Positions 32,712-64,000 of a stretch of 64,000 nt of DNA are shown one piece after another. The stretch is from Candidatus Aminicenantes bacterium. GTDB lineage: Bacteria; Acidobacteriota; Aminicenantia; Aminicenantales; UBA4085. Made by a program: the position numbers and the translations under genes. The stretch is taken from the NCBI GenBank assembly GCA_026393865.1, contig JAPKZI010000044.1, forward strand, positions 571-64,570, read 5' to 3'. The notes beneath the pieces were generated by a model that was not told the DNA's origin, did no database searches, and saw only the letters and a list, made by a program, of their open reading frames with translations. Position 1 is the first letter of the stretch; each line of letters starts with the position of its first letter.

Positions 32712-33137
32712 TCAGACCGTTTCCGGAATATTGTCCGGCGGCTCCGTCTCGGACAGAAATCTATCCTCGAGGGCGACGATCTTTTCCAGGATCTCCGGAG
32801 GGTTGTGATTCTTGCTTTCTCCGTAGGGAAGGAGCTGAACGCCGATCTGGTATTTGTAGCGGGCGTCGGGATTGGGTGAGTACCAGCGGACGATGCCCTC
32901 GATGACGAGCGGGGCCGGCTCATCCGGGAGGAAGAGCCGGAGCGTGATGTGGCTGTCGAACTTCGGGATCTCGTGGGCAAAAAAACGGATCCCTCCGCGG
33001 CTGAGGTCGATGAGGGGGAGAGGCTCGGAGCCAAAATCGCTCTTTTTAAAGAAGGTCGATTCCTTTCGATATTTGATCTCGGCCCCCGGGATCTGAAACC
33101 GGACACATAACCGCTTTTCCAGGCTCATCTCGCCCAT
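32712..33137 (-). CDS. PilZ domain protein (canonical c-di-GMP motifs)
   Basis: RxxxR as 'RLCVR' and D-x-S-x-x-G as 'DLSRGG' about 35 residues later. 141 aa. Confidence 0.75.
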   Translation of the reverse strand: MGEMSLEKRLCVRFQIPGAEIKYRKESTFFKKSDFGSEPLPLIDLSRGGIRFFAHEIPKFDSHITLRLFLPDEPAPLVIEGIVRWYSPNPDARYKYQIGVQLLPYGESKNHNPPEILEKIVALEDRFLSETEPPDNIPETV

Positions 33138-60168: not shown

Positions 60169-60447
60169 ATGATCAAGAACGACATTGCCCTCGCGATCGA
60201 AAAGAAATCCGAATTCAACGGGGCGAAGTCATTGTTGATCGTCGAAACGATCCTCGAATGTCTCAAGGACGCGCTGACCAAGAAGGAGAAAGTGGAGATC
60301 CGGGGATTCGGGAGCTTCAAGGTCGTGGCCAAAAAGACCGGCTACGGCCGGGACATCCGCCGCAAAAAACAGATCCACATCACTCAGGGCAAGCGGATCA
60401 AGTTCCGCTCCGGCCAGGAGCTGAAGAACATCGCCGCCAAGTCGTAG
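60169..60447 (+). CDS. HU/IHF-family DNA-binding protein (IHF-like)
   Basis: 92 aa. 'VEIRGFGSFKVVAKK...GRDIRRKKQIHI...RIKFRSGQELK' has the IHF-type 'EIRGFGSF' arm motif. RBS AAGGAG. Confidence 0.85.
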   Translation: MIKNDIALAIEKKSEFNGAKSLLIVETILECLKDALTKKEKVEIRGFGSFKVVAKKTGYGRDIRRKKQIHITQGKRIKFRSGQELKNIAAKS

Positions 60448-60504: not shown

Positions 60505-61446
60505 GTGGCTTATAAGGAACGACCTCTGTCCCCGGACGGCCTGACGACCTATCCGCTCCGGTCCCGTTCGAGCAAGGTCCGCGTCGCGGATTTGGCCAAG
60601 GTCGCCCGACCGGGCGATCCTGTCGCCCGTTTCGTCCAAGGCCTTCCCCGGTTCCTGGCCGCCAAGGACCTCCAGGAGCTGAGGGCGGCGATGACGAAAG
60701 CCCGCCGCGGCCGGAAGGCTCTGATTTGGGCCATGGGGGCTCACGTCCTCAAGGTCGGGCTCAGCCCCGTTCTTATCGACCTGATGAAGTGCGGCTGGAT
60801 CTCGGCCGTGGCGCTCAACGGCGCGGGCATCATCCACGATTTCGAATTGGCCTACGCCGGCGCGACTTCCGAGGACGTGGCGAGCCAGATCAAGGCGGGC
60901 CGCTTCGGCATGGCCCGGGAAACGGGTGAGCGGCTGAACGACGCGATCCGCCGTGGGGCCGAGGACGGCCTGGGGCTGGGCGAATCCGTGGGCCGGATGA
61001 TCGCGGAGTCCGATTTTCCGTTCAAGAAATGGAGCCTCTTGGGGACCGCCTATCGCCTGGGCATCCCTGCCACGGTCCATGTCGCTATCGGGACGGACGT
61101 CATTCACATGCATCCCCGGGTCAGCGGCGAGGCGCTGGGAGCGACTTCTTTAAAGGATTTTTTCCTTTTGGCCGCGCTCGTCAGGGGACTGAACGGCGGG
61201 GGGGTGTTCCTCAACATAGGCTCGGCCGTCGTTCTGCCCGAGGTCTTTCTCAAGGCGGTGTCGCTTGTCCGGAATCAAGGCCGGGCGCTCGACGGCTTCA
61301 CGACGGCCGTCTTCGATTTCCACCATCATTATCGTCCCGCTCAAAACGTGGTCCGCCGGCCTCTAGGGAAAAAGGGGAAAGGGTATTATTTCGTCGGCCA
61401 CCACGAGATCATGATCCCGCTGCTGGCCGCCGCGCTGGGGCCGTAA
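60505..61446 (+). CDS. Deoxyhypusine-synthase-like (DHS-like NAD-binding fold) family protein, function unknown
   Basis: GTG start. 'ALIWAMGAHVLKVGLSPVLIDLMKCGWISAVALNGAGIIHDFELA' resembles the 'GA..HD' block of DHS-like proteins. The assignment is tentative. Confidence 0.4.
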   Translation: MAYKERPLSPDGLTTYPLRSRSSKVRVADLAKVARPGDPVARFVQGLPRFLAAKDLQELRAAMTKARRGRKALIWAMGAHVLKVGLSPVLIDLMKCGWISAVALNGAGIIHDFELAYAGATSEDVASQIKAGRFGMARETGERLNDAIRRGAEDGLGLGESVGRMIAESDFPFKKWSLLGTAYRLGIPATVHVAIGTDVIHMHPRVSGEALGATSLKDFFLLAALVRGLNGGGVFLNIGSAVVLPEVFLKAVSLVRNQGRALDGFTTAVFDFHHHYRPAQNVVRRPLGKKGKGYYFVGHHEIMIPLLAAALGP

Positions 61447-61462: not shown

Positions 61463-62089
61463 TTATCCCGACGATCCGTTCTTGATCCGGCCGTCCAAGA
61501 GCAATTCCTCGTAAAGCTCTTCCGCTTGCTCGATGGTCTCTTCCATCGATCCGGACGTATCCACGACATAATCGGCGAATTCCAGTTTTTCGTCGGCCGG
61601 CATCTGGGCCCGGACCTTTAGCCGGGCTTCCTTGCAATCGATAAGGTCGCGGTCCATCAGGCGTTGGACCTGGATCTCCTCCGGGCAGGTGGCGACGACG
61701 ATCTTGTCGAAGAATTCGGCGAATCCGGCCTCGATGGTCAGCGCCGCTTCGGAGACGAAGATCTTGACCCGGCCTTCTTGATCGAGCCGGGCGATGGTCT
61801 CCTTCTTCTTCTTCATGACCAGAGGATGAACGACCGCGTCGACATAATGTCGCGCGGCGGCGTCCTTGAAGATGATCGCGGCGAGCTTCTTTCGGTCGAT
61901 CGACCGGTCGGATTTGAGTATGGCCGGACCGAAACGGTCGATCATCTTTTTCCAAGCGGGACGGTCCGGGGCCATGATCTCGCGGGCGACGTCATCGGAC
62001 TTGTCGAGATGGCAGCCGCGTCGGCGGAGAACATCCGCGATGACGGATTTTCCGGAAGCGATGCCGCCCGTCAGGGCCACGGTCAACAT
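61463..62089 (-). CDS. coaE: Dephospho-CoA kinase
   Basis: P-loop 'LTGGIASGKS'. Size (208 aa) and motif spacing are typical of CoaE. Confidence 0.88.
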   Translation of the reverse strand: MLTVALTGGIASGKSVIADVLRRRGCHLDKSDDVAREIMAPDRPAWKKMIDRFGPAILKSDRSIDRKKLAAIIFKDAAARHYVDAVVHPLVMKKKKETIARLDQEGRVKIFVSEAALTIEAGFAEFFDKIVVATCPEEIQVQRLMDRDLIDCKEARLKVRAQMPADEKLEFADYVVDTSGSMEETIEQAEELYEELLLDGRIKNGSSG

Positions 62090-62105: not shown

Positions 62106-62510
62106 CTATTTCTTGGAGCCGCGGATGAACTTGAACTCTTTGTCGAAGCGGACGGCCACGCCCTGTCTCTTGTTCTTCTTGTTCGGCTTTTCGAGGCGGA
62201 CGGTCATCCCCCCGATCCGCAGCTTGAGGGCCCGGCTTTCGGTAAGCTCTTTGGGCAGATCGATCATGATGTTGAGTTTGGAGCCGACCACGACACCGGA
62301 GTCCAGGCAGAAGTAGGCGCCGGTCGAGCTGATGTTCTCGAGTTTCGCCGCTTCCTTGAAATCCTTGCCCTGGGGCAGCGTGCCTTCGACGATGGCCGTC
62401 AGGGGCAGTTCGAAGCGCCATTCCCGGCGGCGGTTGATGTCGACGGGCACGCGGATCTTTTTCACGGACGGGCCGCGCTTGGCGGCTTTCTTTACGGCTG
62501 ATGTGTTCAT
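62106..62510 (-). CDS. PilZ domain protein (canonical motifs)
   Basis: 'RRREWR' (RxxxR) and 'NISSTG' (N-x-S-x-x-G). 134 aa with basic N- and C-terminal tails. Confidence 0.75.
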   Translation of the reverse strand: MNTSAVKKAAKRGPSVKKIRVPVDINRRREWRFELPLTAIVEGTLPQGKDFKEAAKLENISSTGAYFCLDSGVVVGSKLNIMIDLPKELTESRALKLRIGGMTVRLEKPNKKNKRQGVAVRFDKEFKFIRGSKK

Positions 62511-62537
62511 GGCGTTCTTCCCCTTGTCCTTTCGATC

Positions 62538-63230
62538 TTAGAAGAGGGCCGAGTTGATGGCGTAGAGCGCCAGCTGGAGACGGCTGTGCGTGTCGAGCTT
62601 GGCGTAGATGCTCTTGATGTGCGAGCGGACCGTGTTCTTGCTGATGAAGAGGATCTCGGCGATGTCGTCGTTGCTCTTGCCCTGACCGATGAGCTTGAGG
62701 ACCTGGAATTCGGTCGGCGTGAGCTGGTCGAGGGTCTTCTCCTTCATGTCGCGCCCGACGACCGCGATGATCCGGTCCATGATGCTGCTCATCTTGTCCC
62801 GCGGCAGCCAGATCTCGCCGCGGTGGATGACTCGGACGGCCTCCGGGAGCTGTTCGGAGGGATCGTTCAGGTCGAAATAGCCCCGCGCTCCGACGTTGAT
62901 GAGGCTGACGATCTCCTCGTGCGAGGGAATGTTCCCGACGAGGAGCATCTGCGATTTGATCTGGTCCTTGGAGATCTCGCGGATCGCCTTGCAGATCTCG
63001 CGCATGTTGGGGAGCGTCTCGGTGCTGGCGAAGAGGATGACGTGGGGCTGGAGCTTGCGGATCGAGTCCATCAAGGACTCGATGGTGTTCTTTTCGATGG
63101 TGACGACTTCGATCTGCGGGTCGGTCTCAAGGGCTTTCAGGATCCCGGAGAGGATCAGGCCCGACGGGCAAAAGATGAGGACCTTGACCGTCGTCGCGTC
63201 CGAAGAGGAGGTGTCTTTCTTTTTGTTCAT
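62538..63230 (-). CDS. LuxR/NarL-family regulator with pseudo-receiver domain
   Basis: C-terminal HTH 'LTPTEFQVLKLIGQGKSNDDIAEILFISKNTVRSHIKSIYAKL'. N-terminal REC-like fold lacks the acidic pair ('VLIFCPSG'), the phospho-Asp ('HVILFAST') and the conserved Lys. Confidence 0.8.
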   Translation of the reverse strand: MNKKKDTSSSDATTVKVLIFCPSGLILSGILKALETDPQIEVVTIEKNTIESLMDSIRKLQPHVILFASTETLPNMREICKAIREISKDQIKSQMLLVGNIPSHEEIVSLINVGARGYFDLNDPSEQLPEAVRVIHRGEIWLPRDKMSSIMDRIIAVVGRDMKEKTLDQLTPTEFQVLKLIGQGKSNDDIAEILFISKNTVRSHIKSIYAKLDTHSRLQLALYAINSALF

Positions 63231-63287
63231 GCGTTTTTGCGTCCCTTAGGCAATTTTGGTCCTGTCATTTCTCTCTGATTGGATGGA

Positions 63288-63316
63288 ATTCTATTAAATC
63301 GAATCCGGGATGTCAA
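63288..63316 (-). promoter_or_regulatory. sigma70-like promoter for the LuxR-family gene
   Basis: Minus strand: TTGACA (63316-63311), 17-nt spacer, TAGAAT (63293-63288). Preceded by hairpin CGGTCC-gaa-GGACCG after the upstream PilZ gene. Confidence 0.5.
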
Positions 63317-63351
63317 GGAAGGGCGGCGGTCCTTCGGACCGGCATGAGGTC

Positions 63352-63732
63352 TTAGAGTTGAACCTGAAAATTCCTGTCGAGCTTTACCGAGATGAGCTGG
63401 TTCTTGGTCTTGATAGAGACGTCCGCTTTGACGAAAGCGACCGTCCCGGAAAGACGAAGGTCGAAGCGCTTTTCGAGATAAAAGGTCTGAGGGACCCGGA
63501 GGCAGAGCAGAAGCTTCGTCCCGACCATCACCTTGGCCTGAAGGCAGAGAACGGCCTCCTGGGCGCTGAGCGACGAGACTTCCGTATGTTCCAAGAATTC
63601 CCGTTCGGCGGCGTCGAAGCCTTTGACCAACGCGGGAAGACAGAGCTCGAAGGACCGCTCCCTCTTCCGCGTTTCGGAAAAACCTTGAATGGAGGAGGTA
63701 TCGTTCACGTTCATATCCATGAGAGTGATCAC
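63352..63732 (-). CDS. PilZ-like protein with degenerate second motif
   Basis: 'RKRER' (RxxxR) is present, but the D/N-x-S-x-x-G position reads 'SLSAQE'. The start overlaps the upstream PilZ stop by 4 nt. Confidence 0.55.
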   Translation of the reverse strand: MITLMDMNVNDTSSIQGFSETRKRERSFELCLPALVKGFDAAEREFLEHTEVSSLSAQEAVLCLQAKVMVGTKLLLCLRVPQTFYLEKRFDLRLSGTVAFVKADVSIKTKNQLISVKLDRNFQVQL

Positions 63733-64000
63733 GCGTCGGGTCGGATGATGTATTTGCTGTCGAACTTGATCGTGACCTTCTGGCGGATGAGGCGGTCGCG
63801 GTCGGCTTCGACATGGGTCACTTTGCCTTTGATGACCATTTTCAGGGACTTGTCCTGGGCGAGCTTCTCCGGTAGGTCGATGATCAGTTTCAACCGCATC
63901 CCGATATTGATCGGATTCTTGATGTAAAACGTCGATCCCTCATGGCTGATGTAGGTCAGGACCGTGTCCTCGGCGAATTCTTTTCCCCGGGCGTTCAAGC
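63729..64000 (-). CDS. PilZ domain protein, C-terminal part (5' end beyond window)
   Basis: ORF open to the window edge. 'YISHEGSTFY' occupies the x-S-x-x-G motif position. The beta-barrel-like remainder is similar in pattern to the neighbouring PilZ genes. Confidence 0.5.
   Translation of the reverse strand, partial: LNARGKEFAEDTVLTYISHEGSTFYIKNPINIGMRLKLIIDLPEKLAQDKSLKMVIKGKVTHVEADRDRLIRQKVTIKFDSKYIIRPDA

Follow-up and report, generated by a model that had tools for sequence, protein, structure and literature searches.

Introduction

How is a transcription regulator controlled when its receiver-like domain is predicted to have lost the residues used in phosphorylation? The question is raised by a locus of Candidatus Aminicenantes bacterium (Acidobacteriota, order Aminicenantales), in which the gene of a LuxR-type regulator (luxR) stands among three genes for single-domain PilZ proteins, here named pilZA, pilZB, and pilZC. 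The locus lies at the end of a stretch of 64,000 nucleotides (nt) of contig JAPKZI010000044.1 (the window; G000:C74:571-64570), from assembly GCA_026393865.1 (3.2 Mb, 86% complete). An earlier note, made from the letters of the window, took the PilZ proteins for receptors of c-di-GMP (cyclic dimeric guanosine monophosphate) and proposed that they, rather than a kinase, control the regulator. The analysis presented here suggests, with confidence that is evenly balanced, that the locus controls a lineage-specific regulon of surface behavior (type IV pili, exopolysaccharide, and surface proteins) and that a relay runs from PilZC to the regulator.

Most single-domain PilZ proteins have no known partner, and two classes are unexplained, namely degenerate PilZ paralogues and homologues of VpsT that carry the motif WLPR. 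The locus unites a canonical PilZ protein, two degenerate ones, a WLPR regulator, a defined (predicted) operator, and a predictable regulon of pilus, exopolysaccharide, and surface genes. All parts are small and soluble and can be made in E. coli, which puts the relay hypothesis within reach of direct tests. A full-text literature search returned no paper joining Aminicenantes and c-di-GMP, and the locus gives a first handle on how these widespread uncultured bacteria may switch to a surface-attached lifestyle.

A conserved locus with two predicted transcription units

Complete loci were fetched from 38 genomes that represent nine families of the Aminicenantales. At all 38, luxR, pilZC, and coaE (dephospho-CoA kinase) point in the same direction and are preceded by one or two degenerate pilZ genes, with gene order and orientation the same throughout; this arrangement is not due to chance. 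A search of 41 Aminicenantales genomes found one orthologue of the regulator itself in each of 40, at 69–96% identity. Spacing is tight inside the luxR-pilZC-coaE group, with a median of 24 nt from the luxR stop to pilZC (8–30 nt in most genomes) and of 16 nt from pilZC to coaE (37 genomes). The gap between pilZA and pilZB has a median of 7 nt in the home family and measures about 100–200 nt in other families, and the gap between pilZB and luxR is never shorter than 89 nt. Because pilZB is missing in families f5 and f9, the invariant core has a single degenerate pilZ in front of luxR, the canonical pilZC, and coaE. The earlier note had read the minus-strand order as pilZA, pilZB, luxR, pilZC, coaE, which holds for every gene, and had made its proposal depend on PilZ genes adjoining the regulator in relatives, as they do in 38 of 38 genomes.

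The promoters divide the locus in two. A promoter scan finds exactly two minus-strand sigma70-like sites, one before luxR and one before pilZA (Table 1). The first is the site that the earlier note had picked out, and it agrees with the consensus at 11 of 12 positions; by eye, nearly every one of the 38 loci shows a sequence of the form TTGAC(A/T)-N17-TAnnAT upstream of luxR. The second, TTGACC-17-TAAGAT, agrees at 9 of 12 positions and adjoins an extended sequence element, the TCACCC box described below, which is absent from the luxR promoter itself at the 38 loci. The locus is thus predicted to comprise two transcription units, a constitutive-looking luxR-pilZC-coaE unit and a box-dependent pilZA(-pilZB) unit. 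The hairpin that follows pilZB has no T-run and is not called by a terminator scan, and its role as a terminator is uncertain.

In the genomes and proteins searched, the system is confined to one order. The regulator is not found in 150 other Acidobacteriota genomes (E ≤ 1e-25), including 11 genomes of sister orders in the same class. Searching 1.84 billion representative proteins with the regulator returns one full-length cluster at 73% identity, followed by ordinary NarL-type proteins at about 30%, and the homologues of PilZC are likewise labeled Aminicenantes. The comparative evidence all comes from this one clade.

The regulator and its predicted loss of direct inputs

The regulator joins a helix-turn-helix (HTH) domain (GerE, E = 6e-20) to an N-terminal domain that has no Response_reg hit in Pfam even at E ≤ 1. 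It falls under every NCBIfam equivalog cut-off, the best score being 86 bits against a required 300. The AlphaFold2 (AF2) model, with a predicted local distance difference test (pLDDT) score of 73, shows a (βα)5 receiver fold, a long helix at residues 144–165 (α6), and a four-helix LuxR HTH domain; the top Foldseek hits are LiaR, VraR, RcsB, and NarL. LiaR, VraR, and NarL align over the full length, and VpsT aligns to residues 115–227, which cover WLPR, α6, and the HTH. In all 38 orthologues, the acidic pair is replaced by FCPS, the phospho-Asp by LFAS, the Thr by LVGN, and the Lys by YFDL. By these residues the regulator is predicted to be incapable of phosphorylation, as the earlier note had stated.

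Across the 38 orthologues, 15 of 15 positions of the recognition helix are invariant, as are 13 of 15 in the last helix, 18 of 22 in α6, and 6 of 6 in the linker. The α4-β5 segment (HEEiVsLiNvGaRGYfD) is nearly invariant, and the first half of the receiver is variable.

The base of α6 carries the WLPR motif. HMMER aligns GEIWLPRDKM of the regulator to DEMWLTRKLA of VpsT, so that WLPR sits on the VpsT motif W[F/L/M][T/S]R; an Ile and a Met of the regulator align at VpsT I141, a hydrophobic dimer contact. The VpsT motif is not matched, since the third residue is a proline in 38 of 38 orthologues. Two proteins with WLPR, namely QstR (V. cholerae) and BrpT (V. vulnificus), do not depend on c-di-GMP for their action (PMC6237807, also citing Chodur et al. 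2017). QstR dimerizes through α6 without a signal, its R130A mutant is only mildly impaired, and P129T, which restores WLTR, makes it dependent on c-di-GMP (PMC6237807). Direct sensing of the VpsT kind, which was first read from the WLPR/WLTR alignment, was dropped on these data. Because the invariant WLPR is the proline variant of QstR and BrpT, the regulator is probably blind to c-di-GMP by analogy. The probable loss of VpsT-like sensing leaves a partner protein as the likely input route, most plausibly PilZC, the product of the predicted co-transcribed gene.

The site has a wider distribution. Among 83 related LuxR-type proteins, W..R stands at the VpsT site in 18 of the 27 without the phospho-Asp and in 14 of the 56 with it. 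Variants of W-[LIVM]-x-R (WVER, WIER, WLSR, and others) from many lineages (P0141-P0270) go with loss of the phospho-acceptor. This pattern points to a broad, mostly uncharacterized class of putative α6-dependent pseudo-receiver regulators. A search for fusions of PilZ and LuxR domains among the closest homologues yielded only long proteins (P0130-P0182) that are tandem duplications of the regulator or mis-fusions and contain no PilZ domain.

One canonical and two degenerate PilZ proteins

The three PilZ proteins are related, and they differ in the motifs that bind c-di-GMP. Both R-RxxxR (RRREWR) and NISSTG are kept by PilZC in 38 of 38 orthologues. The protein is modeled by AF2 as a six-strand β-barrel (pLDDT 73), for which Foldseek returns MotI/DgrA, PA0012/TssZ, PA4608-type proteins, the PilZ domain of BcsA, and MrkH; PA0012 has the highest identity among these hits, 23%. 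PilZA has no RxxxR in any genome, and its second motif reads [YF]I[SN]H[EQ]G; the fragment of PilZA matches Pfam PilZ at E = 0.0019 with 18.9 bits, under the cut-off of 22.5. In PilZB, RxxxR is out of register or lost (the last Arg is gone), and the Gly of [D/N]xSxxG is a Glu in every genome. Profile comparisons by hhalign nevertheless give probabilities of 99.7% for PilZA and PilZC, 99.4% for PilZB and PilZC, and 99.8% for PilZB and PilZA, and identity of PilZA across the order spans 39–93%.

From these sequences, PilZA and PilZB are conserved, degenerate, full-length paralogues of PilZC under purifying selection. As such they should be functional proteins that do not bind c-di-GMP. Since both lack both motifs in every genome, PilZC is the only member of the trio expected to bind the second messenger. 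The view of several PilZ receptors in the earlier note is thus expected to hold for PilZC and to fail for the other two.

The trio also stands apart from other PilZ proteins. PilZC matches only PilZA and PilZB in its own genome; the stand-alone PilZ protein encoded elsewhere in the window, which the earlier note had listed as a fourth, is real, canonical, and encoded on the minus strand, and is not matched by PilZC at E ≤ 0.01, so it is not a paralogue of the trio. None of the three proteins has a significant NCBIfam hit, although PilZC matches TIGR02266 weakly (E = 0.067), and the PilZC profile matches nothing in a PDB sequence search.

PilZC also begins with an unusually long N-terminal tail of about 25–28 residues (window 62436-62510), which is rich in Lys, Arg, and Ala and disordered in the model. 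Its sequence varies among the orthologues, all of which keep it basic, and it may serve to contact DNA or just to lengthen the loop that wraps around c-di-GMP.

The TCACCC box and its predicted regulon

When the upstream regions of pilZA from 36 genomes are aligned, an order-wide block appears. It consists of a distal palindrome (TCAnnn-N4-nGGTGA), N17-19, TCACCC, N6, TCAYC, N4, GGGGTGA, and the promoter elements TTGACC (−35), N17, and TAAGAT. The composite box can be described as two 6-4-6 palindromes plus one extra half-site, which abut the −35 element.

A 38-nt position weight matrix (PWM) trained on the 36 pilZA promoters finds nine sites above 14 bits in the genome of the window and none in 30 column-permuted controls. 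Its only hit on the contig that carries the module is the pilZA box. The pattern TCACCCN6TCAYCN6GGNGATTG, with at most one mismatch, occurs 2–14 times per genome in 41 of 41 Aminicenantales genomes, and the reversed pattern has no hit in the same 41. The pattern itself has no hit in 11 sister-order genomes, all of which lack the regulator. The box is thus predicted to define a regulon limited to the clade that bears the regulator.

The nearest box upstream of luxR on the same strand is 600–1375 nt away at 37 of 38 loci; 36 of these hits are circular, being the promoters on which the PWM was trained, and the untrained locus L040 has a box of 24.5 bits. At the 38th locus, the box lies 2.8 kb upstream. 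In some families, a second box precedes pilZB.

Boxes elsewhere also behave like promoter elements. Of 34 boxes in a sample of four other genomes, 33 are followed by a co-directional open reading frame (ORF) of at least 70 amino acids (aa) that starts within 330 nt. Most box promoters have poor −35 hexamers, and a weak −35 combined with a box is the pattern expected of activator-dependent promoters.

In the genome of the window, the genes downstream of boxes include ones for surface functions and for signaling proteins. In addition to pilZA-pilZB, they are coaD-pilM-pilN-pilO; a prepilin-like gene with a GT87 glycosyltransferase; a Wzz/GNVR tyrosine-kinase co-polymerase; a Wzx-type flippase with GT2; a set of methyltransferase, DegT aminotransferase, and epimerase genes; two InlB-repeat surface proteins; a HEAT protein with an HD-GYP-type HD_5 protein; a receiver-GGDEF (REC-GGDEF) cyclase with an Hpt protein and a sensor; Memo with an M64 peptidase; and RlpA. 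Similar functions recur among 44 box-downstream proteins scanned in the four other genomes, which include PilM (2), CoaD (2), N_methyl pilins (2), a T2SSE ATPase, Wzz/GNVR (2), M64 (2), HEAT (2), and many PAS, kinase, and receiver proteins, with a receiver domain in 8 of the 44.

Two of these connections can be compared across the order. In 19 of 30 genomes, coaD-pilM has a box that exceeds 12 bits, and nine others show a weaker one by eye at the same position. Of 29 REC-GGDEF orthologues, only 3 have a box, and for this reason a conserved feedback of the box on c-di-GMP synthesis is not claimed. Because the coaD-pilM box is widespread and the REC-GGDEF box rare, the conserved core of the predicted regulon is formed by the degenerate pilZ genes and the operon for assembly of type IV pili. 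Polysaccharide and surface genes appear to be frequent members and c-di-GMP enzymes occasional ones. The TCACCC box and the predicted order-wide regulon are new, and the box can serve as a marker for the regulon in metagenomes and metatranscriptomes.

Several observations on individual members of the set may be added. The late genes of coenzyme A (CoA) synthesis are tied to the system across the order, as coaE ends the luxR-pilZC unit and coaD heads the box-driven pilMNO genes. A second consensus-like promoter lies between the box and coaD (G000:C107:16606-17280; orthologous loci L105-L134). On contig C27 (G000:C27:57600-89300), a large polysaccharide cluster includes two or more box promoters (57688, 76186), and additional TCACCC-N4-GGTGA palindromes occur at 76153 and 89236. 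In at least 16 genomes, the REC-GGDEF orthologue lies on the same contig as luxR, 13–30 kb away on the coaE side (for example, G014:C1:924010 with luxR at 945448 and G009:C2:247401 with luxR at 231169). In the genome of the window it lies on another contig (C7); the diguanylate cyclase (DGC) is thus loosely linked in relatives, not adjacent.

How PilZC, the regulator, and the box may work together

In the relay proposed here, the regulator would dimerize through α6 without a signal, as the WLPR regulators QstR and BrpT do. It would bind the TCACCC box and activate the box promoters, most of which have a weak −35. As the regulator appears blind to both phosphate and c-di-GMP, the second messenger would be read by PilZC, which would dock on the conserved α4-β5/α6 surface of the regulator and switch its activity. 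PilZA and PilZB would be made only when the box is active; being blind to c-di-GMP, they would either compete with PilZC for the regulator, independently of the signal, or work downstream on the machinery of the pilus.

The steps of this proposal differ in strength. Binding of the box by the regulator is likely, given the geometry of the palindromes, the presence of the best box at the regulator's own locus, and the invariance of both the recognition helix and the box core. Dimers of NarL-type proteins bind sites of 7-2-7 geometry, to which the 6-4-6 palindromes can be likened. That PilZC conveys the level of c-di-GMP to the regulator by contact is a serious possibility that falls somewhat short of an even chance; it is suggested by the invariant predicted co-transcription, the lack of another input, the conserved α4-β5/α6 surface, and the precedent of TssZ and HinK. 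The box promoter makes PilZA and PilZB predicted outputs of the regulon rather than simply co-expressed inputs. Feedback of these two proteins on the regulator is rather unlikely. A full partner switch, in which PilZC lends c-di-GMP sensitivity and the regulon-made PilZA and PilZB compete for the docking surface and set a feedback threshold, is less likely still. If true, it would be the first instance in which a transcription factor is controlled by PilZ paralogues acting as receptor and decoy, and a natural answer to how proline-variant VpsT homologues regain control by a second messenger.

Several points weigh against the relay. Both the contact between PilZ and regulator and the binding of the box are inferred, and the structure models are of single chains. 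The regulator and the box co-occur in one clade only, which counts as a single evolutionary event, and no fusion of PilZ and LuxR is present among the closest homologues. The link of the box to c-di-GMP enzymes is patchy, as the REC-GGDEF counts indicate, and pilZB is missing in two families. The model of the regulator is of moderate confidence, and VpsT ranks 28th in its Foldseek list, behind ordinary NarL-type regulators. The interpretation of WLPR draws on two Vibrio proteins that match only the C-terminal half, VpsT having about 20% identity by Foldseek. Finally, the core of the regulon consists of pili, and the degenerate PilZ proteins PA2960 and XAC1133 act on the pilus ATPase, not on a regulator.

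The last point leads to the alternative that survives best, although it is itself improbable. Here, the PilZ trio would be effectors of the machinery encoded by the regulon and not controllers of the regulator: PilZA and PilZB would be c-di-GMP-blind adaptors of the pilus ATPase like PA2960 and XAC1133, and PilZC would be a c-di-GMP-dependent brake or clutch on pili or polysaccharide. The box that pilZA and pilZB share with coaD-pilMNO, pilin genes, the T2SSE ATPase, and exopolysaccharide genes fits such a role. Moreover, more than 17% of single-domain PilZ proteins lack both motifs, and the largest cluster of these is predicted to act in pilus biogenesis (bioRxiv 10.1101/2020.02.11.943704). 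However, pilZC has no box and always lies in the predicted unit with the regulator, not with pil or exopolysaccharide genes. The trio also has no paralogues elsewhere in the genome and matches no named PilZ subfamily by NCBIfam or PDB sequence search.

A second alternative, that the box is bound by another factor specific to the Aminicenantales, would leave the regulator with different targets and with only its location in common with the box. In its favor, box and regulator co-occur in one clade only, and the regulon contains many other response regulators, including the receiver-domain proteins counted above. Nevertheless, this explanation appears quite improbable, since it is directly upstream of the regulator's own locus that the box is best conserved and scores highest (37 of 38 genomes), the inverted repeats resemble NarL-type sites, and the recognition helix and the box core are both invariant across the order.

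Least probable is that the regulator senses c-di-GMP itself, as VpsT does, with the PilZ genes as mere neighbors or targets: WLPR aligns exactly with VpsT W131-L-T-R134, a long helix follows, and the association of W..R with loss of the phospho-Asp suggests an alternative input or a dimerization device, but the proline is invariant, the defining motif is W[F/L/M][T/S]R, and the c-di-GMP-independent WLPR proteins QstR and BrpT, with the mild effect of R130A and the gained dependence of P129T in QstR, speak against it (PMC6237807).

Other features of the locus

The coordinates of the locus are collected in Table 1. The window ends inside pilZA and contains the part that encodes the C-terminal 89 aa; the remaining 94 nt and the box promoter follow on the same contig.

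Table 1. Position of the genes and predicted control elements of the PilZ-LuxR locus, numbered from the first nucleotide of the window; positions above 64,000 are window-equivalent and lie beyond the window end on the same contig (C74; locus L002).
Feature	Position	Strand	Description
Stand-alone canonical pilZ	32712..33137	-	141 aa; Pfam PilZ 31.4 bits; motifs RLCVR and DLSRGG; outside the module
coaE	61463..62089	-	Dephospho-CoA kinase, 208 aa; Pfam CoaE E = 2.5e-44; last gene of luxR-pilZC-coaE
pilZC	62106..62510	-	Canonical single-domain PilZ, 134 aa; Lys/Arg-rich N-terminal tail; Pfam PilZ 26.3 bits (cut-off 22.5)
luxR-type regulator	62538..63230	-	LuxR/NarL family, 230 aa; Asp-less pseudo-receiver, WLPR at residues 141-144, α6, GerE HTH
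luxR promoter	63288..63316	-	Predicted; TTGACA-N17-TAGAAT, near-consensus sigma70-type (promoter scan)
Hairpin 3' of pilZB	63328..63340	-	GGTCC-GAA-GGACC, read from the sequence
pilZB	63352..63732	-	Degenerate PilZ paralogue, 126 aa; GTG start overlapping the pilZA stop; no Pfam hit
pilZA	63729..64000, on to 64094	-	Degenerate PilZ paralogue, 121 aa; L002 2300-2665; C74:64299-64664
pilZA/pilZB box promoter	64133-64223	-	Predicted; L002 2704-2794; C74:64703-64793
-10 TAAGAT	64138-64133	-	pilZA promoter (predicted)
-35 TTGACC	64161-64156	-	N17 before the -10
GGGGTGA	64168-64162	-	pilZA box element
TCATC	64177-64173	-	pilZA box element
TCACCC	64189-64184	-	pilZA box element
Distal palindrome TCAATGCGGGAGGTGA	64223-64208	-	pilZA box element

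The earlier note had suggested that a gene for a DGC or a phosphodiesterase may lie upstream of position 64,000. The 8.8 kb of contig past the window end contain no GGDEF, EAL, or HD-GYP gene; the genome encodes seven GGDEF proteins. About 320 bp beyond pilZA lies a divergent plus-strand gene for a fusion of nucleotidyltransferase and aminotransferase (604 aa), followed by proS, pcm, lpxB, and pseudopilin genes. The fusion gene has a promoter-like sequence, TTGACG-17-TAACAT (L002 2779-2831; window-equivalent 64208-64260), with a −35 that overlaps the pilZA box at its distal palindrome. The gene may therefore be co-controlled with pilZA, and it adjoins the box in only some genomes.

Two further regions flank the luxR unit. 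The 5' leader of luxR (window 63231-63290, about 60 nt) contains the motif CCAAAnnTGCCnAAGGGnC just before the start codon, which is kept across many genomes and may be only the ribosome-binding region; Rfam finds no riboswitch or other known RNA in the locus at E ≤ 1. Downstream of coaE, on the convergent plus strand, lie a gene for an HU/IHF-type DNA-binding protein and an ORF of 313 aa with no Pfam match (60169-60447 and 60505-61446, respectively).

Comparison with known systems

Each ingredient of the locus has a precedent, including PilZ adaptors, a relay from PilZ to a transcription factor, WLPR regulators, and degenerate PilZ proteins. The view in the earlier note that the arrangement is not a described system must therefore be qualified by the pair TssZ and HinK. 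It stands for the combination, as the literature searched contains no description of these ingredients in one conserved two-promoter locus, of the division of canonical and degenerate PilZ proteins between input and output positions, or of the box regulon.

The closest precedent for the relay is found in Pseudomonas aeruginosa, where TssZ (PA0012), a single-domain PilZ protein that binds c-di-GMP, controls the DNA-binding regulator HinK by direct contact (PMC10912698). HinK is called LasR-type in the abstract of that work and LysR-type (a LysR-type transcriptional regulator, LTTR) in its discussion. The likeness extends to PilZC itself, whose Foldseek hits include PA0012. However, HinK is not a LuxR-type protein with a pseudo-receiver, and the TssZ system has no degenerate PilZ paralogues, operon linkage, or shared box; the contact proposed for PilZC is a prediction. 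HapZ and MapZ, also from P. aeruginosa, are single-domain PilZ proteins whose binding to their partners SagS and CheR1 is enhanced by c-di-GMP, and HapZ acts on a two-component protein. Unlike the partner proposed here, these partners are a histidine kinase and a methyltransferase rather than a transcription factor, and the genes are not in a conserved operon.

For the degenerate proteins, the comparison is with the PilZ protein PA2960 and with XAC1133, which work with FimX and PilB. Those type IV pilus adaptors have lost both motifs, as have PilZA and PilZB, which share a box with pil genes. The two groups differ in that no sequence relationship is detected (Pfam, NCBIfam), and PilZA and PilZB are paralogues of the canonical PilZ protein of the same locus. 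Additionally, their genes adjoin that of the regulator and not pilB.

The regulator is best compared with three Vibrio proteins. VpsT of V. cholerae (PDB 3KLN/3KLO) has the same order of receiver-like domain, α6, and LuxR HTH, carries its motif at the equal position, and controls matrix genes in the c-di-GMP network. Unlike VpsT, which binds c-di-GMP through W[F/L/M][T/S]R, the Aminicenantales regulator has an invariant proline as the third residue. QstR and BrpT share with it the LuxR-type HTH, a phosphorylation-independent receiver-like N-domain, and the exact WLPR at the base of a helix that serves, or is predicted to serve, in dimerization. The likeness is limited to the C-terminal half, as judged from the VpsT structure as a proxy (residues 115–227, about 20% identity), and no PilZ partner is reported for QstR (PMC6237807). 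QstR and BrpT are controlled by their own transcription, whereas the luxR promoter of the Aminicenantales looks constitutive and the gene of a canonical PilZ protein is predicted to be co-transcribed. Finally, BrpT is a biofilm regulator of V. vulnificus, a role that resembles the control of polysaccharide and pilus genes predicted for the regulator here.

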